Positions 9,640-45,939 of a stretch of 64,000 nucleotides of DNA are shown here, piece by piece. The position numbers and the translations under genes are program-made. This DNA is from Azolla caroliniana (taxonomy: Eukaryota > Plantae > Polypodiophyta). Under the pieces are notes generated by a model. It saw only the letters and a list, made by a program, of their open reading frames with translations, was not told the DNA's origin and made no database searches. Position 1 is the first letter of the stretch, and each line of letters begins with the position of its first letter. Location: positions 10,230,001 to 10,294,000 of the forward strand of contig JBHGNT010000013.1 in assembly GCA_043228905.1 (NCBI GenBank). Direction: 5' to 3'.

Positions 9640-9760
9640 CTAAGGAAAAGGTGTATTAGAAAGAGATGTTATATTGCCAATAGTGTGATTGATATGTATG
9701 GTAAATGTGGCTTGACCCATGTAGCACATATATGCTTGATAAGCTTCACATATTGAATCA
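9640..9760 (+). pseudogene. PLS-class pentatricopeptide repeat (PPR) gene fragment
   Basis: gcc aat agt gtg att gat atg tat ggt aaa tgt ggc = ANSVIDMYGKCG, the typical PLS-PPR (N.LIDMY.KCG) motif; frameshifted on both sides. Confidence 0.6.
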
Positions 9761-10701: not shown

Positions 10702-10713
10702 TGGTATCAGAGC
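10702..10713 (+). promoter_or_regulatory. Primer-binding site, tRNA-iMet
   Basis: TGGTATCAGAGC 3 nt after the LTR-terminal CA. Confidence 0.95.
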
Positions 10714-10728
10714 GAAACAACATAGAAG

Positions 10729-13700
10729 ATGGACGAATCGTTGGGCGGCATGTTCAAGCTCACCGGCTCCAACTATTCAGTGTGGAAGTCGAAGATGAGG
10801 GACATGCTCGTGGTTAAAGATCTTTGGTTGTCGGTTCAGTTCGGGGACAAGAGACCGGACAAAATCGACGCCACGATATGGGAGGTGATGCACATGAAGA
10901 CAACAGCGTACATACGGTGCTTCATCGACATGAGCCTATACAACAACTTCAATGAAGAGAGCAAGGCTCATGAGCTCTGGGAGAAGATCAGCATTATGTT
11001 TCAGAACAAAAATGCTATTAACCAGGTTTCGGTATTCCGGAAGCTAGTAAGACTCCGGTACCAAGATGGCTCCAACATGGCAGAGCACATGAATGCCTTC
11101 CAGGGGCTGATACACTAGGCAACTTCATTGAAAGTACCTCTCGCCAACGAGGTACTAGCGATACTCCTGCTCGGTTCCCTCCCGGATAGCTGGGAGACAT
11201 TGGTTGTCACTTTGGGCAACGCCGGGCCGGAAGGGAAACGGTTATCCCTAGCAAGAGTAAAGTCAAGCTTGCTAGATGAGGAGGCGTGTCGGAAAGATAA
11301 GGATACAAGCTCCGACTCCAAAGCGCTCCTTACCGAATCGGACCGCGGAAGACAAAGGAACCGTAGTCCCCAGAACCGGGAGAAGTCGGGGACACGGTCA
11401 AAGTCAAGGGGGAGGCCTACTTGATTCTATTGCGGCAAGCCGGGACACTTCCAGAAGAACTGTCAGCATTTCCAAAAAGACAAGGAAACCGACGGTACCG
11501 ATTCGAAGCGGACACCGGACCGGAACGGTAAAGACCGGAGGGGGCCAAACCGGAAGGGAAGGACAGCAATCGCGGCAAGTGAAGAAGAGTTGATGCTCAT
11601 CACCGAGGAGAGTGAGATCAACCTTGCTGGCGACGAGATGACCTGGGTGGTCGACTCCGGAGCATCGTTCCACCTTACCCCGGACCGGAAATACTTCTCA
11701 TCCTACTCAGCCAGTGATCACGGCTGTGTCCGAATGGGGAATGAAGGTACATGCCGAATTGTCGGCATAGGAGACGTGTGGTTGACAACGCCAACAGGAT
11801 GCAAGCTGTTGTTGAAGGATGTCTGACACGTTCCGGAGGTTCGTCTGAACCTGATATCAGCCGGTCAGCTAAATGATGAAGGCTACACGGGTAGCATCCG
11901 GAACGGTGTTATGAAGTTCAGCAAAGGGACCCTGATTGTGGCTCAGGCCCGGAAGGTAAACACGATGTACCTGATGAATGCCCAGTTATGTCCGGAGGAA
12001 GTGAGTGTGGCATCCGACACTGCCGGTGAGCTGTGGCACAAAAGGCTGTGTCACATGAGCGAGAAGGGGATGAAGAGGCTTGCAGATGACAACCTCATTC
12101 CAGTGAAGAACGTGCACTTGGAGAAGTGCACTGATTGTCTGGCCGGTAAACAAAACCGGACCTCCTTCCGATCGAGGCCACTGATGAGACGTAATGCACC
12201 ACTGGAGTTGGTGCATACTGATGTATGTCAAGTGGACACGAAGTCACATGCCGGATCATAGTACTTCGTGACGTTCATAGATGACCACAGCCGGAAGTTG
12301 TGGGCCACACCGTTGAAGACGAAGGATCAAGTGCTATCCGTCTTCAAAGAGCTCCACGCGAGAGTGGAAAGAGAAACCAGCTGGAAGCTGAAGGCGGTTC
12401 AAGCAGATAACGGAGGGGAATACCGGGGGCAGTTCGAGGAGAACTGACGCTCGAAGGGAATCCGGCTCGAATTTACCATGCCGAAGACGCAGGAACTAAA
12501 CGGGTTGGCCGAGAGGATGAACCGGACCATAATGGAGAGGGTCCGAAGAATGTTGGCGCATGCAAAACTACCCAAGAATTTTTGGGCTGAGGCACTGTCG
12601 ACGGCGACATATTTGATAAACAGATCACCCTCAGTACCCTTGGACGGAAACACGCCATAGAGAGTCTGGACCGGTAAGGAAGTGTCCTACCGGCATCTGA
12701 AGGTATTCGAGTGTCTCGCATACGTGCATGTAGCTAAGGACCGGAGAGGAAAGTTAGATCCAAAGACCCGGCCATGCATATTCCTCGGTTACGGTGACGA
12801 TGAGTTCGGCTACCGAGTGTGGGACCCGGTCGACGAGAAGGTATTCTGGAGTCAAGATATTATCTTCATGGAGGACAAGATGCTCGCCGACTGGGAGTCA
12901 GAGAAGAAGATAATGAACTCCGAGTCGACCGGTAGGGATCGATTCTACGATGAGCAGACCCAAGCGGAAAGAGGCCGGTTAGCACTCGAGGAACCAGCCG
13001 GTTACGGTGAGGATACCGAACCGGCAGAAGAAGAAGTAGATGAAGCTGAAACCGGAACCGGACAAGACCCCAAATCGGATTCGGATGAAGAGCCAATGGA
13101 GGGCCCGGTTACCGAAGCCCAAAGACGGAGATATCCTCTCAGAGAGAGAAGGGCCCCCCGGAGATTTCCGGATGCAGAGCATGTGTTGCTAACCGATGAG
13201 GGGGAGCCAGAAAGCTTTGAAGAAGGGAAGGATGACACCCATAGCCGCAAATGGTTAAGTGTCATGCAGGATGAGATGGATTCCCTGCATGAGAACCATA
13301 CATACGAATTGGTGGAGTTGCCGAAAGGAAAGCGAGCACTCCGAAATAAGTGGGTATACAAGTTGAAACCGGGAGATGCCGGCAACCCCCTGAGATACAA
13401 AGCCAGGATCGTGGTGAAGGGGTTCCAGCAGAAGAAGGGCGTGGACTTCGACGAGATATTTTCCCCGGTAGTAAAGATGACCTCCATCCGGACGGTGCTG
13501 AGTATAGCGGCAAGCATGGACCTCGAGGTAGAGCAGTTGGACGTGAAGACGGCATTCCTTCACAGTGACCTCGAAGAGGAGATCTACATGCAGCAACCGG
13601 AAGGATTCGTGGAGAAAGGGAAGGAGCACCTGGTATGCCGGTTGAAGAAGAGCATGTACGGACTGAAGCAGGCTCCCCGACAATGGTACCGGAAGTTTGA

Positions 13701-14775
13701 CTCCTTCATGACCGATCAAGGGTACCACAAGACGCAGGCCGATCACTGCGTGTTTGTGAAGAAGTTCAAAGGAGGCGACTTCCTGATACTCCTTCTGTAC
13801 GTGGATGACATGTTGATCTTCGGACGGGACCAAGCCAAAATACGGATGCTGAAGAAGGCTCTCAACCGGACATTCTCAATGAAAGACTTGGGTCCGGCAA
13901 GACAGATGCTGGGGATGCATATCATCCGGAACCGGCCAACGAAGCAATTGTGGCTGTCACAGGAGAAGTACGTGACAAAGGTGCTTCAACGGTTCAACAT
14001 GTTAGAAGCGAAACCGGTCAGATTGACACTCCCGGCAAACTGCAGATTATCCGATAAGCAAAGCCCGAAGACAAAAGCAGAGAACACTGATATGATGAAG
14101 GTTCCATATGCCTCTGCCGTCGGGAGCTTAATGTACGCAATAGTGTGTACCCGACTGGATATTGGATACGCAGTCGGAGTGGTGAGCCGGTTCATGAGAA
14201 ATCCCGGCAAGGAGTACTGGAACGCGGTCAAATGGATACTCCGGTACTTGAAGGGCACTTCGAATATGTGTCTCCGATTTGGCTCCGGAAAACCTCAACT
14301 TGATGGTTTTACCGATTCAGACATGTCAGCTGATGTGGATACCAGCTGGTCTACATCTGGGTATGTAATGACATATGCAGGGGGAGTTGTTTCATGGCAG
14401 TCAAGGCTGCAGAAGACGGTTGCGTTGTCAACCACGGAGGCGGAGTACATGGCGGTTGTGGAAGCCGGCAAGGAAATATTATGGATGAAGGACTTCATCG
14501 GCAAGCTCGGTATCTGGCAAGATGAATATTGCCTCTATTGCGACAGTCAAAGTGCCATCCACCTTGCTAAGAATGCGGCCTACCATTCCCGGACGAAGCA
14601 TATCCAGCGAAGGTATCACTGGATCCGGGAAAGAGTAGATGACCAGGAGTTCGCACTGACAAAGATCCACACGGCCGAGAACGGGTCAGATATGCTGACC
14701 AAAGTACTGACACCTGACAAGCTGGATGCATGTCGGAAGCGGGTCGGACTACTAAGACATTCCATGCCGGAGTGA
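10729..14775 (+). pseudogene. Copia gag-pol polyprotein (Gag, zinc knuckle, protease, integrase, RT, RNase H) with in-frame stops
   Basis: ORF pieces at 10729, 11128, 11590, 11911, 12478 and 12682 are all in one frame; motifs WVVDSGAS, LWHKRLCH, LLYVDDML and YCDSQSAI. Confidence 0.95.
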
Positions 14776-15715
14776 AGGGGAAGTTTATTAGGAAATAGGT
14801 CCCTCCGGATGGGATGACCCGGTGAGAACCAGATGACAAGTACCCGGCAACGGAAGACCCGGTGAGAACCGGATGACGAGTACCCGACAAGAGCCGGATG
14901 GTGAAGACCCGGTGAGAACCGGATGTGGAGTACCCGGCAACGGATGACCCGGTGAGAACCGAATGACATGTGCCCGGCAAGCGCCGAATGATGCCCAGTG
15001 AGGAGTGCTCACCGGATGAAGGGACATATTCGTAAATATGTTTTTGAGCGTCCATCGGGGCTATATTTGTAAATAGCCGAAAAGTCATATTAGTATAAAT
15101 ATGACTTAGGGCAAACTCTTTTATGTTGTTGTTGTCATTCTTGTTGGCGCAAGACTAGAGCGTGTGTAACAGTGTATAGAGAGAGAGAGAGAGAGGAAGA
15201 GGTTGTTGCCTCTGTTGTAACCGCCGCCTGTGTCGAAGATCGTGAGCACGAGGTCGTTGCCCCGTGAGTTCACTGTTGTAATCATTGTGATATAGTGATA
15301 GTTTGCAGTCTGTGGGCTGCCGTGGTTTTTCCCTCTCAGGGTTTTCCACGTTAAACATCCTGTGCACTCTTCTCTTCTCTGTGTCGTGCATTTCATTCCC
15401 ATTTTTTTTCTGTGTTTGATCCTAGACTCGGTTGTGGCCAAACATTGTTTTAACGGAGCGTGTACTGCTTAGTGATTTTCTTTCGGTTGTTGCCGAAGAT
15501 TATTCCGTGTAGTTCCTGTCAATACACACATGCTATACAACTAAGAATCAAGATATACCACACTTACAATATAATACATACATAAATATGCAATACATAC
15601 ATATGAACACACACATAACACATACATACATAAAATATATACAACATATGCAATACAATATAATACATACATACACACATGTATAAAACATACATGTGGC
15701 TTCTATGTAAGGGCA

Positions 15716-17797: not shown

Positions 17798-18182
17798 GCT
17801 CTGATACCACTGTTAAGAGTCTATTACTAATCAATAGACCAAACTAAAGTAAAAGAAGGAAAATAGAATGGATAGAAGAACCCGTTCCACCCAACCACCC
17901 CCGAGCTATGATCTAGACATAGCCAACCTACCACCGACGTCCCATACCGCCGGATATTAGGATGACTAATACCTTGGAAGAGATAAACGCGATCGTCGAG
18001 ACGAAAGCCTAGCCTGCACCGCCGGTGTCTAAGACAGCAGCCTTCTGACGTAATGTGATTATGAGGGTAGCTAAGCCTCATATTTATACCTTTTCCTAGG
18101 CCCCTTGAATAGATGCGCCTTCCTAAAAGTCTCTCCATTCATTGGTTGTCCAAATCATGATAGTGCAAGCACCTATCATTCC
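17798..18182 (-). mobile_element. Inverted, 5'-truncated LTR (17811-18182) plus tRNA-iMet PBS (17798-17809); same LTR family as 21839-22311
   Basis: Reverse complement of about 21940-22311 (the ORF-track peptides at 17827-18138 and 21984-22295 are near identical); GCTCTGATACCA abuts the LTR. Confidence 0.9.
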
Positions 18183-21100: not shown

Positions 21101-22311
21101 ATGTAGCAAAAACCCCTTCTAAGTGGGAGCAATACCTTCCTATCTTAGAATTTGCCTATAATAGCTCTAAACATACATTCACTGGATATAGTCCTTTTAT
21201 GTTGATGTATGGTTTTCAGCCACATGCCCTAGTTGATGTCACGATTCATTGTGATACATTAGACAGTACACGCATTTTTTTGCAAGACATGAACCAAATG
21301 TTGCATATTGCCAAAGACAATGTCAAGACGACTCAAGATCGTGCTCGATTTTATGTTGATCAGGATAGACGTCCTCGTGCATTTACTATTGGTCAAAAAG
21401 TTTTTTTGTGTGTCCCTACTAACTCTACGTCATTGTCTATGGGTAAGTGCGCTAAGTTAACCCCACGATATTGTGGCCCATTTGAAATCCTTAAGCGGGT
21501 TGGGTCATCTGCTTATCACCTTGCCTTACCCTATAACGTTGGTATTCATCTTGTTTTTCACGTTAGTCGTCTAAAACCAGTTTTAGGCTCTGGTGATAAC
21601 ACCATCACAATCCAAGATCTTGTAACATTAGAGGATTTTTCTTACAAACCTCATGTTCTTGAACGAATTCTTGATTCTCGTACTAGTAAACGTTTACGTT
21701 CTAAAGAGATTCAGCTATTCAAGATCAAATGGATGGATGAACCTATTGACGATGCCACATGGGAACGCGAGCATACTCTTAAGGCACAATTTCCTCACTT
21801 TATATTGCAAGAGTGCAATCTTTTGAAGTAGGGGAGTATGTTATGTACACATAACGTTGGTGAGGGTAGGTCACCAATATTTACATTAGTGAAGGATATG
21901 TTCACTAATGTTAAAAAGGGGACTCATGATTGGATAGAAGGAATGATAGGTGTATGCACTATCATGATTTGGACAACCAATGAATGGAGAGCCTTTTAGA
22001 AAGGCACATCTATTCAAGGGGCCTAGGAAAAGGTATAAATATGAGGCTTAACTACCCTCATAATCACATTATGTCGGAACGTTGTTGTCTTAGACACCGG
22101 TGGTGCGGGCTAGGCTTTCGTCTCGACGATCGTGTTTATCTCTTCCAAGGTATTAGTCATCCTAATATTCGGCGGTATGGGACGTCGGTGGTAGGTTGGC
22201 TATGTCTAGATCATAGCTCGGGGGTGGTCGGGTGGAATGGGTTCTTCTATCCATTTTATTTTCCTTCTTTTACTTTAGTTTGTTCTATTGATTAGTAATA
22301 GAATCTTAACA
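18183..22311 (+). mobile_element. Chromovirus-type Ty3/Gypsy: gag zinc knuckle, protease, RT, RNase H, integrase, chromodomain and 3' LTR (21839-22311); degenerate
   Basis: [54 protein letters not shown], chromodomain ERILDSR..KIKW...DDATWERE; PPT GAAGTAGGGGAG before TG at 21839. Confidence 0.92.
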
Positions 22312-25300
22312 GTTCCACACCATCTTTTCCTCTTAAGTACCATAGTACTCATCCTCCTCTACCTCTAGTACTAATTCCCTCTCCATGTTTAGTACTATTC
22401 CTGACAGTTTGAAACGAATTGCTCTATCTTCTTACTCCTCCCTCTCTTCATATTAATCCTCTTATCCCTTTTTCCTCCAATACTATGGCAACTGTTAGTG
22501 GTCAAGAATATCAATCCGTTTTCTCAGAGTTGCAATGCTTGAAAGAAAGGTTTGTCGCATTGGAACAAGAAAATCAACGGTTGTTGGGGGATCTTCAAAA
22601 AATCTCTTTAGAAAAGCAACAAACGTAACAACAACATGGGGATCTAGCGTTACGCATGCAACAACTTGAAGCAACCATTGTAGCATTGCAACAACAAGGA
22701 CCAAGTACTCAAGGGATTCATAAAGAGCCTAAGATCGGCCTTCCTATGATATTCGATGGGACGCAATCACAGTTCAAAGGATTCCTTAATCAGGTACGAT
22801 TAGTCATTCAAATGCATCCTTCCCGATATCCCACTGATGCATCACGAGTGGGTCTAGTAGGCACGTTGCTGAGCGGCTCAGCTTTGGCATGGTTTGCTCC
22901 GTTATTAGAAAAAAGATCTCCATTTCTAGATAATTTTGCAGAGTTTATAAGCGAGTTTAAAGCCTATTTTGGAGATACTGATACCATAAGGACAGTAATC
23001 AACAAAATCCGACGATTACGTCAAGGTGATCATCCAGCCTCCGCTTACGCTATAGATTTCCGTCTACTCACCTCCAATATCCCATGGGATGATCAAGCAT
23101 TGATGGAGCAATTTCGATACAGCCTACGAAATGATATAAAAGACTTACCCATGACTTTCCCCGAAGAACCAAAATCACTCAGAGAGGCAATCTGTCGAGT
23201 TGTACAATGCGATAACCGGCTTTTCGAGCGATGTTCAGAACACCAGTTAGAAATGCCAAGGACCAGGTCAAAGCCCAAATACGCCTCGGTCGTAGCAAAA
23301 CCATTTGCAAGGGAACCATATAATGCATCTCTGGCAAATACTCGAACACCGATGGAAATCAACATCACACGTCATCGTGGACCATTGTCAGAAGAAGAAA
23401 AGCAACGATGCCAAGCAAATCTATTATGTCTTTATTGCGGAGGACCAAGGCATATCGTAGTAAACTATCCACATAGGCAAAGAATATAGGTAAATCAAAT
23501 AGTAGCTTGTACTAAACCTTAGTCTATTTCAGTATGAGTGTCTGACAATCCTATTAGTACTAATAGCCCAAGTCTATCGAACAAATTTGAAGTCCTTAGT
23601 CAGTTAGAAGAAGAGTTAAACGACTAAGTCTAGCTAAAATAGGAGTCGTTCGGTTGGACAGCCCTAGATCTGGGCAGCCCATTACTGGTTCCATTCCCTC
23701 TAAGCAAGTTAGCAATGTCTTCTTAGCTCACGTAACAGTTAGTACTAAAAGTACCCCTCCAGTACATGTCTTAGCACTCTTAGATTCCGGAGCCAATTCT
23801 TGCTTCATAGATAGGAATTTTGCCCAAGCTCATCAGATATCCCTAAGAAAGCTTCCTTGCCCAACATCTGTAATCATCATAGATGGTCACCCCATTGCTT
23901 CCAGAAATATTGTAGAAGAGTCAAAGCCGATTCAGGTTGTCCTAGATAATTTGGTGTGTGTAGTATCATTTAATATAATTAGTAGTCCAGAGCATCCAAT
24001 TGTCTTGGGGTTACCATGGTTCAAATTACATAACCAAGACACAGATTGGAGAACAAGAGAACCTTGATTATTGTGGTTTGAATAAGGTCACCATCAGGAA
24101 TAGTTATGCACTTCCCCTTATCTCGAGTCTTTTAGAACGGATTAATGGTGCAAAGTTCTTCACAAAGATCGACTTATGAGGAGCATATAACCTCGTACGG
24201 ATCCGACCACGAGATGAATGGAAGACCGCTTTTTGCACCCGATATGGGCACTTTGAGTATACCGTTATGACATTCGGTCTCACCAATGCGCCAGCAGTCT
24301 TCCAGCACATGGCAAATGATATATTCCGAGATCTCTTGGATATCGATTTGATCATCTATTTGGATGATCTACTAGTTTATTCAAAGACTCAAGAAGAGCA
24401 TGATTCTCATGTACTATTAGTACTAAAACGACTTCGAGAACATGGTCTTTATGCAAAATTGGAAAAATGTAGTTTTGAGTGCAACCAGGTGGAATTTCTA
24501 GGCTATGTCATCTCCTCGGAAGGCATCTCTATGGATCTAGCTAAGGTCAAAACTATGGTAGAGTGGCATACTCCATGTTCGTTGTGAGATGTGCAATGTT
24601 TGTTAGGCTTCGCAAATTTCTACCGCAAGTTTATACAAGACTAATCAAAGCTTATTTTGCCTCTCACACAGCTTACCAAGAAGGGGCAGTCGTTTGTTTG
24701 GTTTAAGGAAGCGGACACGGCTTTTGTGAATCTGAAGAAAGCATTTACATCAGCTCCTATTCTAGCTCATGTTGATCCAAAAAAACCGTTCATCATTGAG
24801 GCAGACGTGTTAGATTTCGCCCTTGGTAGCATTCTATCGCAACAAGGCGATGATGAAAGACTACATCCTATGGCTTTCCACTCGCACAAGTTTGACGCTG
24901 CCAAAATCAATTACGAGATACATGACAAGGAGCTATTAGCAATAGTGGACACTTTTGCACAATGGAGGCATTTCTTAGAGGGATCTTCTCATCAAGTCAC
25001 AGTATTCAGTGATCACAAAAATCTTGCCTACTTCACAAAAATCTTGCATACTTCACAAAAATCGACAACAAGCTCGGTGGGCCCAATTCCTCACTTGTTT
25101 CGACTTCAAAATTACATATTGTCCTGGGAAGCAACAAGGGAAGGCAGATGCATTATTGTGGCGCTCGTATCTAGCACCTCATCTCGGTGATCCAGCATTC
25201 AATAATCAAAAGCTAGTAATCTTGGGACCAACACAACTACAAGCAACATGGGTTTTTGACACTCCATTGGATTCCCGCATTATAGATACGATACGTGAAG

Positions 25301-27250
25301 ACTTGAAGACAGACACTTTCGCTCAAGCCATTCTAGCGCAAATTGATCCCTCTCAGGCATCTTGTTCACATTCGCAACAACCAGGTACGGACTATCAACA
25401 ATTCGAATGTCATGATGGATATGTTCGGACATGTGATACATGTTGTAGAGCCAAGATGCCAAGACACCATGCATATGGTTTATTAGAACCATTACCAATT
25501 CCAAGCAAGATGTGGCAGTCCATTTCTCTAGATTTTATCACAGATCTTCCAGTTCCAAAGGGATTCAATGCGATCTTAATAGTAGTAGATCGATATTCTA
25601 AGATGGCACATTTCCTGCCTTGTACTAAGGAAATCACTAATGAAGAAACTGCCAAAATTGTCATGCGTGAGGTATTTTGGCATCATGGCCTCCCAAATAG
25701 TATCATCAGTGACCGTGGACCTCAATTCGTCTCAAAATTCTGGAAGCATCTCTTCAAAATGCTCAAGGTCACTTGTAACCGCTCCTCCGGCTATCACCGT
25801 CAAACAGACAGACAAGCAGAATGAACAAATCAAACGCTGGAACAGTATCTTCGGTGTTTTCTAAGCTTATCAACAAGATGATTGAGCAGATATTCTCCAC
25901 TTTGCCAAATTTGCTTATAATAACTCTATCCACTCATTGACTAAGGTTACACCATTTGATGCTTATACATGTTATCATCCTCGGTGGTGTGTATTCGAAA
26001 CTCCAGAGTTACCCACAAATCCACGTGCAGAGGATCATTTGGAGCGGCTACGCAAGATACAAGCATACCTAATGATCGAGAATGTAGCAAATGGTCGAGT
26101 TCTTATTCAAGACTCCCATCGCCAAGGGGGGGGGTGTCATTATATAGCATGTTATGGCTTCAAAAGGATTTGAACCAATGACCTTTTGTCACATGGGTTG
26201 AAGCTCTACCATTAACCTATACATTGTAATACAAAGAATATTTTCATTTATTATTTTACTTAAGAAATTCATGTATATTCTTGATTTCTTTGGAACATTC
26301 TGGAAATGTCAAGAATGCTCCTAAGCACACTATAAAAAGAGGCACATGGCATTATTGAGAACCAATTCGGTTCAATGCTAGTCTTAAGCCTCCTAGTTGT
26401 TCTTGTATCTTTCTCCTTATAATATATATCTTCTATTGCCATCATCTCTCTCTCTCTCTCTCTCGTGAGTTCCACGCTATCTTTTTCTCTTAAGTACTCA
26501 CAATACTCATCCTCCTCTACCTCTAGTACTAATTCCCTCTCCATATTTGTTACCGTGCGAGACGTACGGGTGATTGTTAAGTGTGATAAGTGCGGGTGAA
26601 AGATATATGTATGTGTAATGTCATACGATTATGAGTGTGAATGTAAGTGAGAGTGTGAGGGATATAAAGAGGTGTGAGTTTGTGACTAGGTGTGAATGGC
26701 CAAGGGTCTTGCACCCTTGTGTATCTACCCCTTTGTACCTATATTAACCCCTTATGGGGAATGAATGAAAAAAGGAATAGTTCTCTCTCTCTTCCTCTCT
26801 CTCTCTCTCTCTCTCTCCCATAACGTTGAACCCCTTGGGAGGGGGGTGGAGCCATTCTAGGCACCACCCCCCACCCCACAATGCTTCTCAATGCACATCG
26901 TAATCATGCTCTCAACCCCATAATGCTTATCAATCTCGCCATCACATTGTTTCCATCTTCATCACTATCAATGTCATCATCAATCTTGCAATGCTAATCA
27001 TTTCCATATTCGTATTATTAACAAACCCTAACCCTATTCCTATCTTTATCACCATAATCATTAACCCTAACCCTAAAACCATCAACACTATTTTGGCACG
27101 CGCTACGGCCGACCATCCTTAGAGAAGAAGTCAAAGAAGGATGCACGATGACAACGTAAATGTGAAATGTGCGATAAATGGTGATAATAATGTGGGCGAA
27201 ATCGAATCAACAATGTATGGTAAATGACGGTTACAATATGCTAGATAATG

Positions 27251-27871
27251 TCAATGAATGAGATGTGGCAATACGAATGTGCGAGAAAGAGTGGTGCGGG
27301 AAATGGAGACAAACGAAGACGGTGATGGAATAAGGGAACGGAGCCCGTGATGATGGCATGTAATCCATTGAGCTACGGCGTGCCACAGCTTCCGGCCCTC
27401 CTTGCCGTCCTTCCCTCGTACCATGTCGATTGCCATGCACAACCCGTCTGCAATCAACACCGGCCAGTCCACCTTGACCCCTTCATAGGTGGCTATGATC
27501 ATCCCTGCCCGATTTTTTGGCATGACAGGGGGTCGGGGGTACACGTGACCGTACTCGTGGAGCACTCGAGCTATCTCCCTGAATAGCGGATCTTCGCCGC
27601 CCTGCGTCCGATAGCCTTTGCCGGCAACAGAGTACTCACCGAAATATCGGGTGAGTTGCTCCGAGGTTGGGTTATCGATCTGAAAGATTCCTCCCTCCGG
27701 AAGGCCTGTTAGCGCGCGGATCGCTTCCTCGGTGATGACCTCTGTGGCGAGCTCCTTGATGACCCGGTCGGCTTCTCTGTGCGGCGGTGCCTCCATGATG
27801 GCCAAGAACCCCTCCAGTCCGTTTTGCCTGAACCATTTCCTGGCCGCTTCCGACAGCGTTTGTGGTTCCAT
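27251..27871 (-). CDS. Extra ORF downstream of pol (206 aa), Athila-type accessory/env-like position; function unknown
   Basis: Intact ORF between pol and the LTR; ITEEAIRALTGLP..G and VDWPVLI resemble plant Gypsy extra-ORF patterns (recalled, not searched). Confidence 0.55.
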   Translation of the reverse strand: MEPQTLSEAARKWFRQNGLEGFLAIMEAPPHREADRVIKELATEVITEEAIRALTGLPEGGIFQIDNPTSEQLTRYFGEYSVAGKGYRTQGGEDPLFREIARVLHEYGHVYPRPPVMPKNRAGMIIATYEGVKVDWPVLIADGLCMAIDMVRGKDGKEGRKLWHAVAQWITCHHHGLRSLIPSPSSFVSISRTTLSRTFVLPHLIH

Positions 27872-28247
27872 GTCTGCTTCAAGGTCGAGGGACGATGGCG
27901 AGGTAGAGTGGTGATGAGGGTGAGAGCGAGAGAGAGAGCGTTCTGAGCGCGGGGGTTCTCTGCGTGTAGGTTCGCGTTTGCTCAGCTTCCACTGCCTTGG
28001 TGCTTCTGTGCTTCTTGGCTCGCGAAAAAAAGAAGGTCTCCATGCGCTCCTCTATTTCTCTGTGCGTCTTGGCGCCTTTTTTTCGAGCGTGCGCACGTCG
28101 TGTACCGATTTAGTATTAAGTACGTGGCGGCTCTTAAATGCCCACTACGTACCTTTTCGCGCCTTGCTTTCACACCCGTTCATACCTCGATTTTTAATGA
28201 TTTTTTTTTTTTTTTTTTTTTTCAATCTTTAATGACGGTGTGTGACC

Positions 28248-30545
28248 TTACACATCCGTAGGTCCCTTCGGACCCTGACCGTTTTCCTTACGGGTTGCCG
28301 TGTCTTCCTTCGTCTCTGCTATGGTGAGCTGCATAAACGGGTTCTTTGGCATCGGTCCTTTATAGGGTTTTAGTCGAAATCCGTTTACCCACTTGCCTAG
28401 TACTTCACCGGCAAGTGTCCCTATCTGATAGGACCCGTTGTATTCCCGTGTCAGCCAATACGGGCCTGTCCATCTGAACCGGAGTTTACCCGGCATCTTG
28501 CCCATCCTCGTTTGGAATACTAGCACCGGCTTTCCGATTTCGAACATCTTTTCGTTACCTTTCCGGTGACGGTCAACGAACGCTTTCCGTCGTCGTTGCT
28601 CCAGTTCCATGTGGAGGATGCTGGCCAGCCGTTGCTCCTCCAGTTCGCATAGTGCTGCTAGCCGTATTTCCTCCGACTTCTTTTCATTCAGCCGTTCCCG
28701 TAGTTGGATCCGTAAGCTTGGTACCTGAAACTCGACCGGCATGACCGCTTCTAAGCCGAATGCTAACCGGAACGGCGTTGTCCGGATACTCGTTTTGTAT
28801 GCCGTTCTGTAAGCCCATAGCGCACTATGCAGCTTTGTGTCCCAGTCCGTCCGGTTTTCATTGACAATTTTGCGGAGAATGTTCTGCAGCGTTTTGTTGG
28901 TGGACTCTGCTAACCCGTTCGCCTGTGGGTAATACGGTGTGCTTCTTTTATGGACCACGGCATAGAACGTTGTTAAGCTTTCCACTACCTGGCCGAGGAA
29001 ATGCCCTCCTTGGTCGCTGATCAGTTCAATCGGACATCCGTATCGGCACCAAATGTTCTCGTACAGGAATTTTGCTGTGGATGACGCGGTGTTGTCTCTC
29101 AGGGCCTTAGCTTCCACCCATTTCGTGCAATAATCCGTTGCCACGATGACATAACGATTACCCGTTCTCATTGCCGGTGGCTTGAACGGTCCGACAAAAT
29201 CCAATACCCACTTCTGGAATGGCTCTAGTGGAAGTACCGGTTGGTGTGGCATCCGTGCTTGCTCCGTAGGCTGGCCCATTCGTTGGCATAGGTCACATTC
29301 CTTAGCATACCTGACGGCATCTTTTAGCGTCGTGGGCCACCATAAGCCGCTCTGCCATACCTTTCTTGCCGTCGCTTCCCCGGCATAGTGTCCTCCGGCA
29401 ACCCCACAGTGTGCTTCCCGTAAGATTACTTCTTTCTCGTCACTACGGACTGCCCGTCTCCATATTCCATCTGCTCCTTTGTGGTAGAGAGTGTCCCGTA
29501 ACAGACAGAAATTGCGGCTCTGCACCGCCAGTCGTTTCCTCTCGTCCCGGTTCATTTCCTCCGGTGGCAGGCCCGTGCTTAGGAACTGGTGCATGTTTGT
29601 CAGCCATTTATCTTCTGATGCCACCGTGTCGTCCGCTGCCGTTTCCGGGGTGATACGGAATAACTCCGCGTCCGGGAATTCATCCGCTACTCCGTCGCCT
29701 GGTTCTCCGGACTCTAACCGGCTCAGGTAGTCTGCTACGGCATGCTGGATACCGGGCCGGTGGAAAATCTCGAATTCGAACTCCTGCAACAGCAAGGTCC
29801 AACGGGCCAACTTACCGGTCAGGGACGCCTTGGACACTAAGTACAGAAGCGCCGAGTGATCCACATGAAAGGAAAACTTCCTTCCCAATAGGTAGTGCCG
29901 AAACTTTGTGACGCTGTAGATCATGCCGAGGGCCTCCCGTTCCGTCGTTGAATAGTTCTTCTCCGCTTGGGACAGCTTCCGGCTGGCGTAATATACCGGC
30001 CGGTACCATTTGGGCTCCGTAAGCTGCATTAAGGCGCTGCCAATAGCGATGTCGGACGCGTCCACGAACACGTGAAATTCCTTGCTCCAATCCGGAGGCT
30101 GCACGACGGGTGCTTGCGATAAAAGTACCTTCAGGGCATTGTATGCCTTATCCTCCGTATCCGTCCATTGGAACGGTGTCCGATGTACCGCGGTGTGTAA
30201 TGGTGTAGCCAAGTCAGCCAAGTGACGGAGCATCCGGCTGTGCCACCGGATCTGTCCTAAGAATCGGCTTAGTGCTTTGGCCGTTTTCGGCGCCGGTGCC
30301 CCTAGTATGGCGTTTACTTTGTCCGGGTCGACCGCAATGCCCTCCTTACTTACAATGTGTCCCAGCAATATTCCACTTGAAACCCCGAAGATGCATTTTG
30401 CTGGATTTAAGCTTAGCCGGTATAACCTACACTTTTCAAGGCATAACCGTAGGTGCTGCAAATGGTCTTTTCCCCGGCTATAGACTGCAAAATCATCCAG
30501 GAAAACTTGCATGAAGGCAGGGATGTATTCTCCGAAGATCTCCAT
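28248..30545 (-). CDS. Partial pol: RT C-terminal half, RNase H and integrase (765 aa, uninterrupted); gag, protease and RT N-terminus absent
   Basis: VFLDDFAVY, FHVFVDASD, NYSTTEREAL, HHCC (EAH..GGHY..CDLCQ), LDFVGP, LISDQG, YYPQANGLAE, RWTGPY. Confidence 0.9.
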   Translation of the reverse strand: MEIFGEYIPAFMQVFLDDFAVYSRGKDHLQHLRLCLEKCRLYRLSLNPAKCIFGVSSGILLGHIVSKEGIAVDPDKVNAILGAPAPKTAKALSRFLGQIRWHSRMLRHLADLATPLHTAVHRTPFQWTDTEDKAYNALKVLLSQAPVVQPPDWSKEFHVFVDASDIAIGSALMQLTEPKWYRPVYYASRKLSQAEKNYSTTEREALGMIYSVTKFRHYLLGRKFSFHVDHSALLYLVSKASLTGKLARWTLLLQEFEFEIFHRPGIQHAVADYLSRLESGEPGDGVADEFPDAELFRITPETAADDTVASEDKWLTNMHQFLSTGLPPEEMNRDERKRLAVQSRNFCLLRDTLYHKGADGIWRRAVRSDEKEVILREAHCGVAGGHYAGEATARKVWQSGLWWPTTLKDAVRYAKECDLCQRMGQPTEQARMPHQPVLPLEPFQKWVLDFVGPFKPPAMRTGNRYVIVATDYCTKWVEAKALRDNTASSTAKFLYENIWCRYGCPIELISDQGGHFLGQVVESLTTFYAVVHKRSTPYYPQANGLAESTNKTLQNILRKIVNENRTDWDTKLHSALWAYRTAYKTSIRTTPFRLAFGLEAVMPVEFQVPSLRIQLRERLNEKKSEEIRLAALCELEEQRLASILHMELEQRRRKAFVDRHRKGNEKMFEIGKPVLVFQTRMGKMPGKLRFRWTGPYWLTREYNGSYQIGTLAGEVLGKWVNGFRLKPYKGPMPKNPFMQLTIAETKEDTATRKENGQGPKGPTDV

Positions 30546-31520
30546 GATGATTCGCTGGAAAGTTGCTGGAAAAAAAAAAGAGAGAGGAAAAAGAAATTTA
30601 AAATAATATTATTATAAAGAAATAAAAAGAGAAAGATAGGGGCATAAGACAAATTTCAAAAACTCATGGACCTAAAAGAAATGGACGCAAACCACACACA
30701 ACTCACAAGATACAAAGAAGACTATACATACAACGTTTTTTTGACAACCCGAAGTATGTTACCAAGTTCGTGTGCCGACAGAACGAGAATGTTCGTGTCG
30801 ATAAAGATTCGCTGACCGACAAAGATGTTCGAGTCAAGCGCTCCGATCGAGGGAGTCGATCGTTGAGAGGACCGATGGAAGTTCCGGTCGAAGAAAGATT
30901 ATGATCAAGGCATGTGGGATCGAAGTGCAAGGCACTTTCCCACGGGCGTGCCATATTGTGTTACCGTGCGAGACGTACGGGTGATTGTTAAGTGTGATAA
31001 GTGCGGGTGAAAGATATATGTATGTGTAATGTCATACGATTATGAGTGTGAATGTAAGTGAGAGTGTGAGGGATATAAAGAGGTGTGAGTTTGTGACTAG
31101 GTGTGAATGGCCAAGGGTCTTGCACCCTTGTGTATCTACCCCTTTGTACCTATATTAACCCCTTATGGGGAATGAATGAAAAAAGGAATAGTTCTCTCTC
31201 TCTTCCTCTCTCTCTCTCTCTCTCTCTCCCATAACGTTGAACCCCTTGGGAGGGGGGTGGAGCCATTCTAGGCACCACCCCCCACCCCACAATGCTTCTC
31301 AATGCACATCGTAATCATGCTCTCAACCCCATAATGCTTATCAATCTCGCCATCACATTGTTTCCATCTTCATCACTATCAATGTCATCATCAATCTCGC
31401 AATGCTAATCATTTCCATATTCGTATTATTAACAAACCCTAACCCTATTCCTATCTTTATCACCATAATCATTAACCCTAACCCTAAAACCATCAACAAT
31501 ATTTAGTCCTATTCTTGACA

Positions 31521-38421: not shown

Positions 38422-41400
38422 TGTTGAGAATCAAGCTCAACCTGGTCTAGTGTGTGAACTCACCTTGAGAGTGAAGAGACACTCCAACGGTCAAGAGTCA
38501 CCATTATGTCACCACTTTGTATTCTAGCATTTAGTATGAGTCATAGAATCATATTCTATGACACATAACTTATGAGCTTTCACATTCCCCATGCTCCATG
38601 AGCCTTGTAGTTAATGAAGAGAGAGGGTGACTACATAAAGCACCCTCCTCCCACCTTGTATAATGTTGTCTTTCTCCTTTGTCAATATACTTTTACATTG
38701 TGTATTCCTTGTCTCTCTCTCACTCCCTCTCTCTCTCTCATACACACACATAACTCATATCTCTTCCGCTTCACAAGAATCCATCTCTTGATTCTTTACA
38801 TGGTATTAGAGCGATTTGGTAGCTCGATCTAGCCCATTCGCCTCATCGTGATCGTGTGTTGTGCTCCACGCCGACGACCAAGAACCGGCTCATCGCTATC
38901 GTAGCTTCGCTACATAGCTCGCATTCAAAGAGAGAAGAAGAAAAAGAAGAAAAAGAATCAACATAATGAATACTCAAATGGGGAGCGCTCTCCCTACCGA
39001 GAAGTTGGATCGAAATAACTTCGCATCTTGGGAGTACAAGATGCACCAATACCTTGTCGGACAAGGCTATTGGAGCTACATCAATGGAGCGCATGAAGAC
39101 CGACCCGCCGAAGCAGCTCCCGGATACGCAACATGGGAGCAAGCCGCTAGCCGCATGATGTATTGTTTGGCGACATGTGTTCACAACCACATGCTCGGTT
39201 ACATTCAAGAAGCCAAGACGCCGAAGGAAGCGTGGGAAAACCTACGAAAGATTTTCAGCGCCAACACGAACGCGAGGAAGCTTCAACTCCGCCAAGAGTT
39301 GAACAACATTCAACAAATGGATATGTCCATCACGACATACACCTTGAAGATCAAGGAGCTTTGCGACTCACTCGGCTCAATAAGCGTAAGTATAGATGAT
39401 GATGAAATGGTGCAAATATGCCTCGGCGGCCTCGCACCACGGTTCGGCACGATGCGAACCACCGTTCTAGCACGGGAGAAATCTCCCTCCTTGTTCGAGC
39501 TCCAATCAATGCTATTGGTCAAAGAAAACCATGTGCGTACGAGGAGCAATGAGTCGGAACGCCACATGCTCTACACGCACTCTAATGGAGGAAGAGGACG
39601 TGGACGAGCGAGAGGCCGATTCGGCCAAGGACAAGGCGGACGAGGTCCGACCTACGACAACAACTCCCAATTTCAGCCACAAAACGGAGGCCAACGAGGA
39701 ACCTTCGTAAGAAGGGGGAGCTTCCACTCTGGCCCGAGCCGTCAAAATGCAACCGAATGCGGATATTGCGGAAAGCTCGGCCACCACGAAGAAGAGTGCC
39801 GAAAGAAGATGTGTGAATCGGCTTCCACAAGCCGACAACTCACAAATTACGCGCACAATTCCGACTACGAAGAGTATAGCGGAATGTACGGGCACAACTC
39901 CGACTACGAGGATCGTGGTGGAATGTACGCATACAACTCCGACTGTGGCGAAATGTTCATGATGAAACATAGAGCAAACTCTATGTCGGCCTCTACCTCA
40001 ACTAGTGCCCTCAATCCGGAGGACGTATGGTTTGTTGACTCCGGAGCCTCAAACCATATGACATCCCACAAAGAATGGTTTCTCGAACTTCGAGAGCCGG
40101 AGGGACCCGGTTATGTCGAAACCGGAGATGACACTACGCACCCGATTCGGCACATCGGCAATGTTCCGTTTGGCGAAAGAGGTAAGCAAACATACATTAA
40201 AAATGTCTTGCATGTACCCACCATCACAAAGAATTTGGTCTCGGTTGGCCAAATAGTTGAGCAAGGGATGCAAGTACGATTCGACCAAGAAGGGTGCTTC
40301 ATCGAAAAAGAAGGTCGAATTATCGCACGCGGACGAAGAGAGGGCCGGATGTTCATTCTCGATTCGCACGAGATGAAATCCGCCATGTTCGCGAAAAGCA
40401 CGAAAGCTGACTCCGACATAGAGCTATGGCATAAGCGAATCGGCCACATCAATCTCAACAAACTCAAAGCAATAAAATCGAAAGGAGTCGTCATCGGACA
40501 CCCGACATTCAAAGAGAAGGAGATTGAAGGTGTATGCGAAGCGTGCCAATTCGGCAAGCAACATCGACACGTATTTCTGAAAGAGCGGAATGTGAGCAAA
40601 GGCGTACTCAACGTAATTCATTCCGATGTATGGGGTCCAGCCAAAACGGCGACATTCGGCGAATGCCGATATTACGTGCTCTTCATCGACGACTTTTCTA
40701 GGCACACTTGGATCTATCCGATGCGGCAAAAGAGCGAAGTGTTCGGACACTTACAAAAGTTCAAGAATGAAGTCGAGAAAGCCACGGGCCAACATGTACG
40801 ATGCCTTCGATCGGATGGCGGCAAGGAGTACTTCTTGGATGATTTCACGGCGTATCTCCGAAAGGAAGGAATTCGGCGAGAATTCACTTGCCGACACACT
40901 CCACAACAAAACGGAGTAGCCGAGCACAAAAATCGGCACATCCTCGAAGTAGCGCGGGCCATGATGAACGAGAAGCATATGCCCAAGTCATATTGGGCTG
41001 AAGCGGCAAATATGGCCATCTACCTAATGAACCGGTGCACAACATCCGGCGTGCACGAGGTCACTCCGCACGAAAGATTCTTCGGAAAGAAGCCGAAACT
41101 ATCACATGTTCGGATATTCGGCTCCATTGCGTACGTGCACATCCCCGACGAGAAGCGTCAAAAGCTCGACCCGAAGTCGAAGAAATGTATCCTCGTAGGA
41201 TACTCACTGGAGCAAAAGGGGTACAAGTGCTACAACCCCTCAACTCGAAAATCTCGGGTAAGTCGAGACGTCATCTTTGACGAGTCCGCATCCTGGTACA
41301 CACCAGAGACAACTTCGCTTCCGCTCGACCCGGAATCCACTGAACAAGAGATAGAGGATGAAGATCATCTTACGTGCATGTTCGATCACGACCCGACTGA

Positions 41401-43933
41401 GCGGATCACAAGAGCCTTTGAGCGATCAAAGCACATCACGGCCTAGCCCGAAGATAGACAAAGGCAAGGCGAAAATGGTGGAATATGAAGACGATCGCTT
41501 CGACGACGATGAATCGACTCACTCACTCGACAGTGAGTTCAGCGGTTTCGTGGTACCAATCGGAGCCAAGAATTCCCTCATCTCTGCAAATAAAAAGCTC
41601 CGTCGATCCACTCGTGAAAAGAACCTTGTAAGCCGATTCGGCTACAACGATTACATGGCGTACCATTACGCCTTCATGATGAAGGTAGCGACAGTACGGG
41701 AGCCGGAAACTTTTTCGGAAGCCGCGAAGGACCCGCGATGGATCAAAGCAATGAACGAGGAGATGCAGGCACTATGGAAGAACGAGACGTGGGATCTCGT
41801 TCCCACCTCACCACACAAAAAGGCGATCGGATGCAGATGGATCTACAACTAGGTGAAGTATAACGTCGATGGCTCCGTAAACCGCTACAAAGCTCGACTC
41901 GTAGCGAAAGGATACGCTCAGACGTATGGCGTTGACTACGAAGAGACCTTTGCCCCGGTGGCAAAGATGACGACGGTACGGACCGTAATTGCGATTGTCG
42001 CGGCGAAAGCGTGGCACCTCCATCAAATGGACGTCAAGAACGCCTTTCTACAAGGCGAATTAGATGAGGAGGTGTACATGATCCAACCACCCTGCTTTAA
42101 CTCGAGCACTCATCCAAAAGCCGTATGCCGACTCAAGAAGCCACTCTACAGCCTCAAGCAAGCACCGCGTGCTTGGCATTCGAAGATAACGCAATATCTT
42201 CATCAAATCGGCTTCTGTATGTCAAAATCGGACAACTCCCTCTACATACGAAGCAATTCCGCAAGTCCGATCGTCATCATCTTATATGTAGATGACCTAG
42301 TCATTGGAGGTGAGCATCTCGTCGAAATCACTAAGGTCAAATCCCTCCTTTCCGACAAGTTCGAGATGACGGACATGAAGGAGCTCCACTACTTCCCCGG
42401 CATCGAGGTAATTCGGACTCCAGCCGGAATCATGATCTCTCAACGGCACTACATCCTCAACTTGTTATACAAGTTCGGGATGGCTGAGTGCAAATCCGTA
42501 GCAACCCCGCTCGATTGTAATCTCAAACTAGATGCGAACTCCAGCACCAAAGCATGTGAGCCGACTCAGTATCGGCAACTCATCGGGAGTCTAATCTACC
42601 TCACTATCACTCGACCCGATCTCAGTTATCCGATCGGTCTCCTTAGCCAATTCATGCAAACACCGCGTGATACTCACTTGGATTGCGCTCAGCGAGTTCT
42701 ACGATACGTGAGCGGCACAATGGATTGCGGCATCCTCTACAAGACCGCGATGCCAATACAACTCAAGGGGTACACAGACGCCGATTGGGCCGGCTACAAA
42801 GCTGATAGAAGATCAACCTCCGGATTTGTTTTCTCCCTCGGCAGCGGAGCAATATCCTGGAGTAGCAAGAAGCAGCCTACCATCGCTCTTTCGAGTACGG
42901 AGGCGGAATATAGGGGCGCAGCTGTAGCTGCATGTGAAGCCGTATGGCTTAAGAGGATTTTGAAGGATTTGGGCGTTCCCATCAAGGATCCAACTCCCCT
43001 TTACTGCGACAACATGAGCAGTATTTATCTGGCTCGGAACCCAGTGTTCCACACGCGGACAAAGCACATCGAAGTGCACTATCACTTCATCTGAGAGCGC
43101 ATTCTAGCTGGCGATGTCGACCTACAACATATTAGCACCAATCTTCAAACAGCTGACATCTTCACTAAAGCCTTAGGAGCTGACAAGCTATGGCAATTCA
43201 TGACCGATCTCGGATTGACGATCCCTGACCTGCCAAGCTTGAGGGGGAGTACTGAAGGCACTACGCAATAACGCGTAGATTCCGCAACTACGCACTACGC
43301 AATAACGCGTGGATTCCGCAACTACGCACTACGCAATAACGCGTGGATTCCGCAACCACGCAACAAAGCCGCGAAGAAAGATGCAAGCCGAAGCACAGAC
43401 TTCGCAACTACGCACAACGCAAGCTGGAGCACGGATTCCACAACTCCGCATACATGCGAGTCGACACGAGTTGACGCGGACTCTAGAACGCGAGTTGAAG
43501 CGGATTTCGGATACAGTCTGAAACCGACCCGACTTGAGCTTGAGGGGGCGTGTTGAGAATCAAGCTCAACCTAGTCTAGTGTGTGAACTCACCTTGAGAG
43601 TGAAGAGACACTCCAACGGTCAAGAGTCACCATTATGTCACCACTTTGTATTCTAGCATTTAGTACGAGTCATAGAATCATATTCTATGACACATAACTT
43701 ATGAGCTTTCACATTCCCCATGCTCCATGAGCCTTGTAGTTAATGAAGGGAGAGGGTGACTACATAAAGCACCCTCCTCCCACCTTGTATAATGTTGTCT
43801 TTCTCCTTTGTCAATATACTTTTACATTGTGTATTCCTTGTCTCTCTCTCTCACTCTCTCTCTCTCTCTCTCATACACACACATAACTCATATCTCTTCC
43901 GCTTCACAAGAATCCATCTCTTGATTCTTTACA
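38422..43933 (+). mobile_element. Full-length, young Ty1/Copia LTR retrotransposon
   Basis: LTRs 38422-38800 and 43551-43933 near identical, TSD TTATC, PBS TGGTATTAGAGC 38801-38812, PPT GAGGGGGCG. Confidence 0.97.
38966..43270 (+). pseudogene. Copia gag-pol with one frameshift (about 41390) and in-frame stops (about 41850 and 43092)
   Basis: CGYCGKLGHHEEEC, WFVDSGAS, LWHKRIGH, HSDVWGP, ILYVDDLVI, YTDADWAG, YCDNMSSI. Confidence 0.93.
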
Positions 43934-45939
43934 TTATCATATGACCATATCAAATAATAACTTCTTTTGATGGCCAAAGTGATCTATCTATCCAACAAAA
44001 AGTAAATTTGAGCAAAATTAAATTGTACATAGAAATTAATAGGTAATTTCCTTAAGTTGTTATTCAAACTACAATGACATAAGGAACTATGAGTACAAAT
44101 AGCGGAGTATACAATGTACAAAATAAATATGTTTGGAAGAGGTATTGGCATACTACCAATGCGGTTAGCCCATGAACACTCACAAGATGGTCATATAACA
44201 TCAAAGTCTTCCCAAGTAAACCACATCGAGTGATCCTGCTCAACCTTAAGTAATGAGACTATATAACCCCCTCCAATGTAGACAACATCCTCTTTAATCA
44301 ATCGTTAAAGGGAGAGAAAGGCCTAATATATCCTCCAAACCTTTTTCCACTAAAATTAGGGATCACTCACTTGTTCACAAAGAATATAGATGTAATTACG
44401 ATAAAGCCAAGCATACTATTAATATATGTCAACTGTAAGCACAAAGTTTTACAAATTCCTGATGAAAATATTATAGTTACCAAACATATATATATATGAT
44501 GTTTTGAAATATGAAGCACACTATTGAAGTATCAATCATAAGGAAAACATTTTAGAATTTGTTTACAATAATACTATATAGTGCTTATTATTCTCAATCA
44601 TCACTTTTCACAAATAATAATGGAATTATGCTTTTAAACCCCATCTTAGACATTCCACAAAACAGAAGCGTGAATGTATGTCTTTGTCCACGTCAAAGCT
44701 CACTTTGGAAGGAAACCATTAAATGTTCTTTGATTTTTGTTCGATGTGATGGATGTTTGCAACATACCTTTTGAGTTCTCTCATCTTGAGGTACCCATGT
44801 TCCACTCAAGGCATAAACTAAAACATTTACATGTCCCTCTCTTTCCAATGTTGATTGTTTCACGCATTTCTTTTTCGTCACTTCCACTGCCACATATGGT
44901 TCCCCCCTCCCCCCCAAAAGTGAGAAAATCGTAGGAATCAATTGCATCCCCATTTTATTCCACATCTTTTACATTCTAATGTTTGAAGTCCACAAAACCA
45001 ATCTTTTATTGTGGAGACAAGAAATTATGCATGTGGTTCTCCCTCTTTAAATTTGGTGCCAAATCCTATTATCGATTCTTTTCCTTTAATCTTCCATTTG
45101 AGTTGGGTCTTGTAAAAGTCCTACACGTTTTTAAGCATATCGAAGAGCAATGCCAACATGTGTATTTATTCTTTATGAAAAATTAGATTGAAGATTATGC
45201 ATCAATTTTTATAAGTTAACAATTTGTGAGTTATTTTTAGATCACTACCCTGTAACATCTTTTACTATGATTCAGTAATTTAGAAGGTGAACGTGATTTC
45301 AAATTTATCGATATTTTGTCACAAGGTTTTGGGGAGGTATCACACACAAGAAAACACAAGGTGAAAGAGCACACAAGTAACTAACAACACAAGCCCCATT
45401 TCTTATTAGGTCTAAGTTTTGAAGAATTATAAATTCTATTTGAGTTACAATTTTAACTCTCAATCGTATTCAAGTTATCATTATATGGTTTGTGTGTTAA
45501 ATCAGAATATAAATCTTCAACAACATTCTAAGTTACAATATGTGCAATTATCAAGAGCCGAACTAGACCTGAGGGTTTACAATAGACCATGTGAATATCA
45601 ACAACTAATCTTTTGATAGAAAAACATTAAGGTAGATTATTACAATAAAATATATATGAAAAAAGTGTGAATGTAACTAAGATAATATGCTGAATGGAAC
45701 TAAGATATTATAGTTCGATGTGTTCTGTTTGGACATATACAAAACACAATTATAGATAAACAATCACGAAGAACATGCTCATATGGATGCACACACATAT
45801 GTATTGGTTAAGCACATACAATATTTGGCAAGGTGCAATTTGAAGAAATAACAAGTGTCAAGCACATCACATCACAAGCTTTTTCCTAGTCACCTCAATA
45901 AGCACAATCTACTTTACACACATTTTATAGAATATTGGG

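Follow-up and report, generated by a model that had tools for sequence, protein, structure and literature searches.

A cassette resembling a tRNA 3' end stands in the place of the polypurine tract in a lineage of Ty3/gypsy retrotransposons represented in Azolla caroliniana

Background

The priming of the plus strand by a polypurine tract (PPT) is given as a general rule for retrotransposons with long terminal repeats (LTRs) (PMC5371799, PMC10886601). How does such an element start its second DNA strand when there is no PPT beside its 3' LTR? The question is raised by an element at positions 26548-31498 of a 64,000-nt stretch of the genome of the fern Azolla caroliniana (contig JBHGNT010000013.1, forward-strand positions 10,230,001 to 10,294,000), which is referred to below as the window. 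An original prediction, made from the letters of the window, described it as a young Gypsy element with sites resembling tRNA-primer sites at both inner LTR edges and proposed that tRNAs might prime both strands. By comparing the element with its relatives we found that the PPT is replaced by a cassette resembling the 3' end of a tRNA, and that this holds across the lineage and not in the window copy alone. We assign a probability of roughly 0.55 to the reading that a second host tRNA, likely tRNA-Arg, primes the plus strand from this cassette on first-strand DNA.

Results

Borders and inner edges of the element

The element is bounded by a pair of LTRs of 540 nt each (26548-27087 and 30959-31498, both on the plus strand, an orientation taken from the relatives), which have TG...CA ends and differ by 1 mismatch (539/540 identity), with a TATA-like motif at LTR position 191. 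It is flanked on both sides by ATATT (26543-26547 and 31499-31503), and this target site duplication (TSD) is real because the rejoined flanks line up with an uninterrupted paralogous stretch at 22311-22409 (90% over 100 nt) that matches the empty site. The TG...CA LTRs, the TSD and the order of reverse transcriptase (RT), RNase H and integrase are those of a Ty3/gypsy LTR retrotransposon.

At both inner LTR edges the element carries TGGCACGC, in inverted orientation: the plus strand reads TGGCACGCGCTACGG from 27094, after a spacer of 6 nt (27088-27093, identical in length in the autonomous relative L007), and from 30953 on the minus strand the letters are TGGCACGCCCGTGGGA, preceded by a spacer of 5 nt (30954-30958). 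The left site (27094-27103, plus strand) occupies the canonical position of the first-strand primer-binding site (PBS). Within the 30 nt beside either inner edge the longest purine run is 4, and up to 100 nt from the edges the longest runs measure 9 on the plus strand at the right edge and 5 on the minus strand at the left. Of the canonical scheme, the PBS beside the 5' LTR is therefore present and the PPT beside the 3' LTR absent, while an ordinary G-rich PPT was seen at the 3' LTR of two positive controls, i.e. the Copia element at 38422-43934 of the window and the unrelated Gypsy element L102. The two sites, their spacers, the lack of a purine tract, the near-identical LTRs and the perfect TSD are all as originally predicted. 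A model of independent bases gives a probability of about 1e-4 that the 8-mer turns up by chance within 8 spacer positions, and a chance origin is moot because the site is conserved in the relatives.

The TSD also resembles both inner spacers (27088-27093 and 30954-30958), with a match of 7 nt at the right inner edge and of 5/6 at the left, which may reflect chance or a choice of target biased by microhomology with cDNA overhangs. The notion that the left flank resembles the inner spacer because it is a retained primer was rejected, as the paralog at 22311-22409 has an identical flank. The 3' end of the LTR holds telomere-like AAACCCTAACCCTA repeats (27025-27080 and 31436-31491).

The 3' site in relatives

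A metagenome scan yielded 356 confirmed relatives among 397 candidate stretches, and the best 80 of these 356 were analyzed. Long relatives share the order LTR, PBS, a single gag-pol open reading frame (ORF) of about 1800-1940 aa, a second ORF in the sense direction (ORF2, about 900-1200 aa), the reverse complement of the PBS, and LTR. From this layout of the intact relatives it follows that the right-hand site of the window belongs at the 3' edge, in the position of the PPT, and that the plus strand of the window is the sense strand of the element. The original prediction had read the right-hand site as the PBS of the strand that encodes pol; that assignment has to be reversed, since the site lies at the 3' edge in intact relatives and it is the pol piece of the window that is inverted.

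Fourteen of the 80 loci reach the start of the LTR at the 3' edge, and in 13 of them the cassette lies directly before it, at a distance of 2 nt (with CCA changed to CTA in one case); two further loci, L005 and L007, end within the cassette. The spacer measures 2 nt in all 14 relatives that have a complete junction. Over the 30 nt that end at the 3' LTR, the longest purine run measures 3-4 in the window and in 13 relatives. The original prediction had named a normal PPT in the family, or a second site that is not conserved, as grounds for giving it up; on inspection the relatives keep the site and show no PPT. An apparent site in L038 proved to be a fuzzy match inside ORF2 and was excluded from the counts.

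The arrangement extends to a long contig from a separate scan, L104, with both LTRs (1.6 kb), 59% pol identity and a different LTR and PBS: here too the 3' LTR is preceded, at a distance of 2 nt, by a tRNA-like end with CCA, there is no PPT at this place, and an unrelated hairpin of 7-8 bp stands just upstream of the tRNA-like end, in the same place as the hairpin of the cassette. Among seven LTRs that were compared, only one pair is alike. In the host's own sequencing runs the summed contig depth (which is not a copy number) is highest over 30914-30949 and falls upon entry into the LTR, with several different LTR starts attached, and differences in these runs (best 40 of 98) fall at only two positions within the cassette. 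The cassette is common to many families in the host.

Elsewhere, a single-protein scan of viral contigs gave 0 relatives among 11 candidate stretches and an alignment scan gave two distant elements. The distant seed-plant-like loci L106-L110, L116, L117, L119 and L120 have no identifiable LTR junction. The cassette pattern matched once in the viral contigs, with no element context, and twice in five genomes, both matches being bacterial and by chance. Several prokaryotic genome records (among L103-L134) hold contigs with Gypsy elements of eukaryotic type, likely through contamination.

Anatomy and conservation of the cassette

The cassette comprises 40 nt in three parts, all on the plus strand: a decamer resembling the 5' half of the T-arm in a tRNA (30914-30923), a 13-nt hairpin inserted at the position of the T-loop (30924-30936), and a stretch of 17 nt that resembles the 3' end of a tRNA and includes the terminal CCA, i.e. 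an antisense PBS at the position of the PPT (30937-30953). Among eight representatives the mean pairwise identity of these parts is 0.74, 0.64 and 0.95, respectively, compared to 0.27-0.28 upstream. Of 52 cells, 88.5% show pairing of the 4-bp hairpin stem, and two-sided changes number 12, a count that was reached in 0 of 500 shuffles and was far lower in slid controls, where the relatedness of the rows inflates the test; in three rows of one family the stem pairs in a shifted register. The tRNA-like letters are nearly fixed while the hairpin varies with compensation, a pattern that would be expected if those letters were constrained by an outside molecule. In folds of the minus strand the end complementary to CCA is unpaired in 5/6 minimum-energy structures and in 6/6 centroids. 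Rfam did not recognize the cassette, and ARAGORN called no tRNA in the window, in the 80 element loci or in 14 rescanned loci.

Which tRNA the cassette resembles was approached through known tRNAs. The last 28 nt of a phage tRNA-Arg(TCT) align to it, the 13-nt hairpin forming a single insert at one point of the T-loop, an alignment that fixes the tRNA-like layout and not the isotype. The site presumably corresponds to tRNA-Arg, an assignment that draws on non-host tRNAs. The site-derived tRNA pattern was found in 0/5 genomes with plant contigs. The PBS TGGCGACCACG is labeled Trp in a paper on a human endogenous retrovirus; this label was not transferred to plants.

The 5' PBS varies by family

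Some families have TGGCACGCC, or a sequence near it, as their 5' PBS and others have TGGCGAC; the spacer spans 2-7 nt. The bases that could pair between PBS and cassette number 8 in the window, 8 in L023 and 11 in L026. In the families with a TGGCGAC PBS the cassette is unchanged and only 4-5 bases can pair; L002 and L104 have another type of PBS that limits pairing to 4 bases and one wobble, and keep the cassette. Because the cassette is unchanged where the PBS switches tRNA type, it is kept for its own sake.

The window copy is a non-autonomous chimera

The LTR and TSD frame of a young Gypsy element stands, but what it encloses is not an intact one, because 27359-30568 is an inverted pol/ORF2 fragment and sister copies carry 594 other bases in its place. 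The left internal part of this non-autonomous family (27104-27358, plus strand) is non-coding, with a longest open frame of 45 codons, and is covered by continuous contigs at lower depth. It is followed on the minus strand by an N-terminal piece of ORF2, the extra 3' ORF of the autonomous family (27359-28051), and by an open pol fragment that spans the C-terminal part of RT, RNase H and integrase (28248-30568), inverted relative to the LTRs and primer sites. The right internal part of the non-autonomous family (30569-30913, plus strand) then leads to the cassette; contigs X4:9 and X5:16 match 30569-30833 with 0 differences. Across pol the inverted fragment is 94% identical to L001 at the DNA level, and the ORF2 piece (176 aa) is 100% identical to a full-length ORF2 protein of 972 aa.

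Contigs found in two of four public runs, one in each, resemble the window up to 27358, continue with the 594 other bases and rejoin at 30569, whereas loose contig ends at 27358 and 30569 run on into the autonomous pol and ORF2. The window copy is a short non-autonomous element whose middle was replaced, in inverted orientation, by a young piece taken from an autonomous family. Gag, protease and the N-terminal part of RT are absent from it, while its relatives hold the full series of gag, protease, RT, RNase H and integrase, and it would need Gag, protease and RT to be supplied by an autonomous family. Among the contigs listed none bridges the junction at 30569, and depth is zero just beyond it, though other contigs match the stretch that follows the junction. 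The insert may have been acquired before or after insertion of the element; it may also be an artefact of assembly or a single rearrangement confined to this copy. Recent transposition, claimed for the architecture in the original prediction, is shown for the frame with its two sites and is no more than possible for the inverted pol insert, whose junction is bridged by no contig among those listed.

At 27102 the window reads G and sister copies read C (all depth in X1 and X4, 120/136 in X5 and 124/130 in X7). The two sites of the family therefore share 10 nt, not the 8 nt of the original prediction, which is correct for the window.

Discussion

How the plus strand may be primed

The plus strand has to begin just upstream of U3, where the sole conserved feature is the tRNA 3' end, with its CCA 2-5 nt from the LTR. 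The position and conservation of the cassette, the covariation of its hairpin, the lack of a PPT and the inversion of the pol insert in the window copy were observed; the following route is inferred. A tRNA would prime first-strand DNA at the 5' PBS, as usual. Next, the cassette would be freed of its RNA by RNase H, and the DNA of the first strand would fold so that 9-10 nt of TGGCACGCC remain exposed. A host tRNA (likely tRNA-Arg), or a 3' fragment of one, could pair with about 17 nt, skip the hairpin and re-pair with about 10 nt through its T-arm, upon which RT would extend from the CCA across the spacer of 2-5 nt into U3; integrase would finally trim the spacer, as it is required to do at the PBS end. 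Because the cassette has the polarity of the tRNA itself on the sense RNA, a tRNA can bind only to the cDNA (or to antisense RNA). Priming by a host tRNA is favored because the tRNA-like letters that flank the hairpin are kept in sequence and the hairpin is kept in structure only.

Several observations weigh against this reading. The LTR of L043 is not preceded by a cassette; as the ORF2 match of this locus also stops early, the locus may be deleted or nested. The 13 loci with the cassette are collapsed short-read contigs from about five subfamilies and are not 13 independent cases. The T-arm half of the cassette is variable, the cassette as a whole folds better than shuffles in the window copy only, and it is one base short relative to the phage tRNA-Arg(TCT). 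That tRNA, moreover, was found with a pattern derived from the site, which makes the match and the duplex energies partly circular, and a looser T-arm pattern gave 15 loci of which 11 had a tRNA call: 7 Ile, 2 Arg (one a repeat) and 2 Cys.

Alternatively, the cassette could be a PPT in the shape of a tRNA, such that the element's own RNA survives RNase H there, receives a cut just behind the CCA of the kind made at a tRNA-DNA junction, and acts as the plus-strand primer, with no need for a second host tRNA. A mixed sequence with 45-50% purines is unlike the RNase H-resistant tracts that have been described, and such a role gives a poor account of why some 27 tRNA-like letters, among them the T-arm half on the far side of the hairpin, are kept while the hairpin changes freely. 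On the other hand, the position and the 2-nt spacer are as expected for a PPT, the one-base gap relative to a tRNA would be tolerated, the sense RNA of the cassette can form a stem that leaves a 3' tail, and only the ordinary retention of an RNA fragment would be required (Ty3, PMC5371799). We consider this explanation the main rival, though an unlikely one, and the explanations that follow less likely still. It is improbable that the order of events is reversed or ambisense, with an antisense genomic RNA using the cassette as first-strand PBS and the 5' site priming the second strand, so that both strands are still primed by tRNAs. The cassette is indeed longer and more conserved than the 5' PBS, it has two parts with an internal loop like the first-strand site of Ty1 (PMC5371799), and the window copy captured a pol fragment in inverted orientation; such a capture, however, could also come about in any LTR element, through a switch of template or through DNA repair. 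Moreover, the TATA-like motif is present on the gag-pol sense strand in 7/7 LTRs and on the other strand in 2/7 (with patterns picked after the sequences had been viewed, the one for the minus strand being narrower), and the geometry of the 5' site is that of an ordinary PBS, L104 having a PBS-like run of 18 nt there. We give equally little credence to a symmetrical variant, in which host tRNAs prime both strands, the two ends are functionally equivalent and sense or antisense RNA is copied into an identical integrated product, inverted pol capture being a by-product.

The cassette might instead have a role other than priming, for instance in packaging, as a small-RNA target on antisense transcripts or as an RNA structure, while the plus strand starts from nearby cryptic RNA fragments. 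Conserved structures near a 3' LTR could well serve other ends, and tRNA fragments can target plant elements (PMC12786077). Yet in every complete junction that bears the cassette the CCA end lies at a fixed distance from the TG of the LTR (2 nt; 5 nt in the window), the geometry to be expected of a primer terminus, and the cDNA end has to be set precisely by some feature; we rate such a role as slightly more doubtful even than a reversed order. Very improbable, finally, is that the cassette pairs with the 5' PBS within the RNA, as a self-primer or to circularize the genome. The bases that can pair in the window, L023 and L026 would allow it, and the original prediction had offered pairing of its two sites as an alternative. 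The idea is largely refuted by L002 and L104, in which the PBS is mismatched and the cassette nevertheless kept, it is weakened by the TGGCGAC families, and it would leave the plus strand without a primer.

Placement of the lineage and nearest known systems

Pfam scans of L001, L007, L023, L026 and L104 showed no archaeal RNase H and no chromodomain. In a quick tree of 54 rows, made with no curated references and with seed-plant rows presumed to be Athila (P0058 was dropped for short coverage), the families fall in a well-supported clade with unnamed relatives, with proteins of ferns and liverworts as neighbors and the seed-plant rows set apart. On the grounds of the 5-bp TSD and the forward extra ORF, the lineage may be described as an Athila-like group of Ty3/gypsy elements. 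It shows the features of the Athila clade in having no archaeal RNase H, no chromodomain, a 5-bp TSD and a forward extra ORF at the 3' side; the archaeal RNase H that marks Tat (TatI-III, Ogre, Retand) is lacking, and the 5-bp TSD and the presence of ORF2, of roughly 1000 aa, do not fit Phygy or Selgy, for which the table of PMC6317226 gives a 4-bp TSD and no extra ORF. With Athila (OTA, non-chromovirus Ty3/gypsy; Neumann et al. 2019, PMC6317226) the lineage shares the 5-bp TSD, the single gag-pol ORF, the forward ORF after pol and a non-Met PBS; it differs by its tRNA-end cassette instead of a PPT. Moreover, Athila elements mostly use PBSs of the tRNA-Asp, -Asn or -Ala type, with tRNA-Asp dominant (72%) in the table of that paper; PBS types differ among the families of this lineage and do not appear to be of the tRNA-Asp type. 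Concerning the presumed primer at the 3' site, PBSs of the tRNA-Arg type are common in Ogre, TatIII and Retand (PMC6317226).

ORF2 (L002:3319-6327 and window 27359-28051) gave no Pfam hit above the cutoff; its N-terminal domain has weak look-alikes among the Transposase_32, ATHILA and PMD clusters, which are leads only, and a match of one ORF2 to Pfam VP30 (E 0.001, under the cutoff) was treated as noise. In L104 an ORF of 2444 aa (7925-15256) carries pol on for about 1000 aa beyond integrase. BLAST found no match between it and the other ORF2s, and the extension is possibly a fused extra ORF.

With canonical elements (Ty3, Ty1 and retroviruses; PMC5371799, PMC10886601) the lineage shares LTRs, a PBS by the 5' LTR, the TSD and RT-RNase H-integrase, but where these have an RNase H-resistant PPT it has a mixed-base copy of a tRNA 3' end with CCA. 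A parallel to the cassette is the bipartite PBS of Ty1 and Ty3 (PMC5371799), which pairs in two parts, as proposed for the cassette, with the acceptor end and the T-arm of a tRNA, with an internal loop between the parts in Ty1 and one part near the 3' end in Ty3. These sites, however, are complementary to the tRNA on the genomic RNA and prime the first strand in elements that have a PPT, whereas the 3' site described here has tRNA polarity on the sense RNA. Sequences derived from tRNAs also occur in the Helenus terminal-repeat retrotransposons in miniature (PMC10886601), where they lie inside the LTR as a Pol III promoter and PBS and PPT are kept, and in the single element cqgypsy_1 (PMC3286476), which has tRNA copies at the PBS region. 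Other departures from standard priming, such as the self-priming of Tf1/Sushi, Tcn1 and TAR (PMC6317226, PMC10085805), change the first-strand primer, and the fission-yeast elements keep the PPT. In the accessible parts of PMC6317226, PMC5371799, PMC10886601, PMC10085805, PMC3286476, PMC4724089, PMC11963269 and PMC12786077 no tRNA site in the place of a PPT is described, and a literature search whose coverage excluded subscription journals and Repbase reports found no description of a plus strand primed by a tRNA.

If the proposed route is correct, the RT of an abundant and recently active lineage can use a tRNA placed on a DNA template to begin its second strand or else, should the element's own RNA be the primer, a mimic of a tRNA; either outcome bears on how RT and RNase H choose a primer. 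A second strand started from a tRNA would be an undescribed copying mode for such elements. We predict that annotation tools which score PBS and PPT will mis-orient or under-call elements of this lineage.

Other features of the window

A related LTR of about 340 nt (70% alike over 139 nt) lies at 60630-61000, followed after a spacer of 1 nt by a TGGCACACCC PBS; no partner LTR for it was found in the window. About 450 nt downstream of this PBS, at 61422-61990, there is a decayed tubulin-like retrocopy with a weak hit to Pfam Tubulin, possibly a host mRNA that was captured by a related non-autonomous element. Finally, two 374-nt repeats of 95% identity, inverted relative to each other (17809-18182 and 21940-22313), flank a decayed Gypsy pol region; they could stem from two insertions that occurred separately, or from a single element of which one LTR is inverted.

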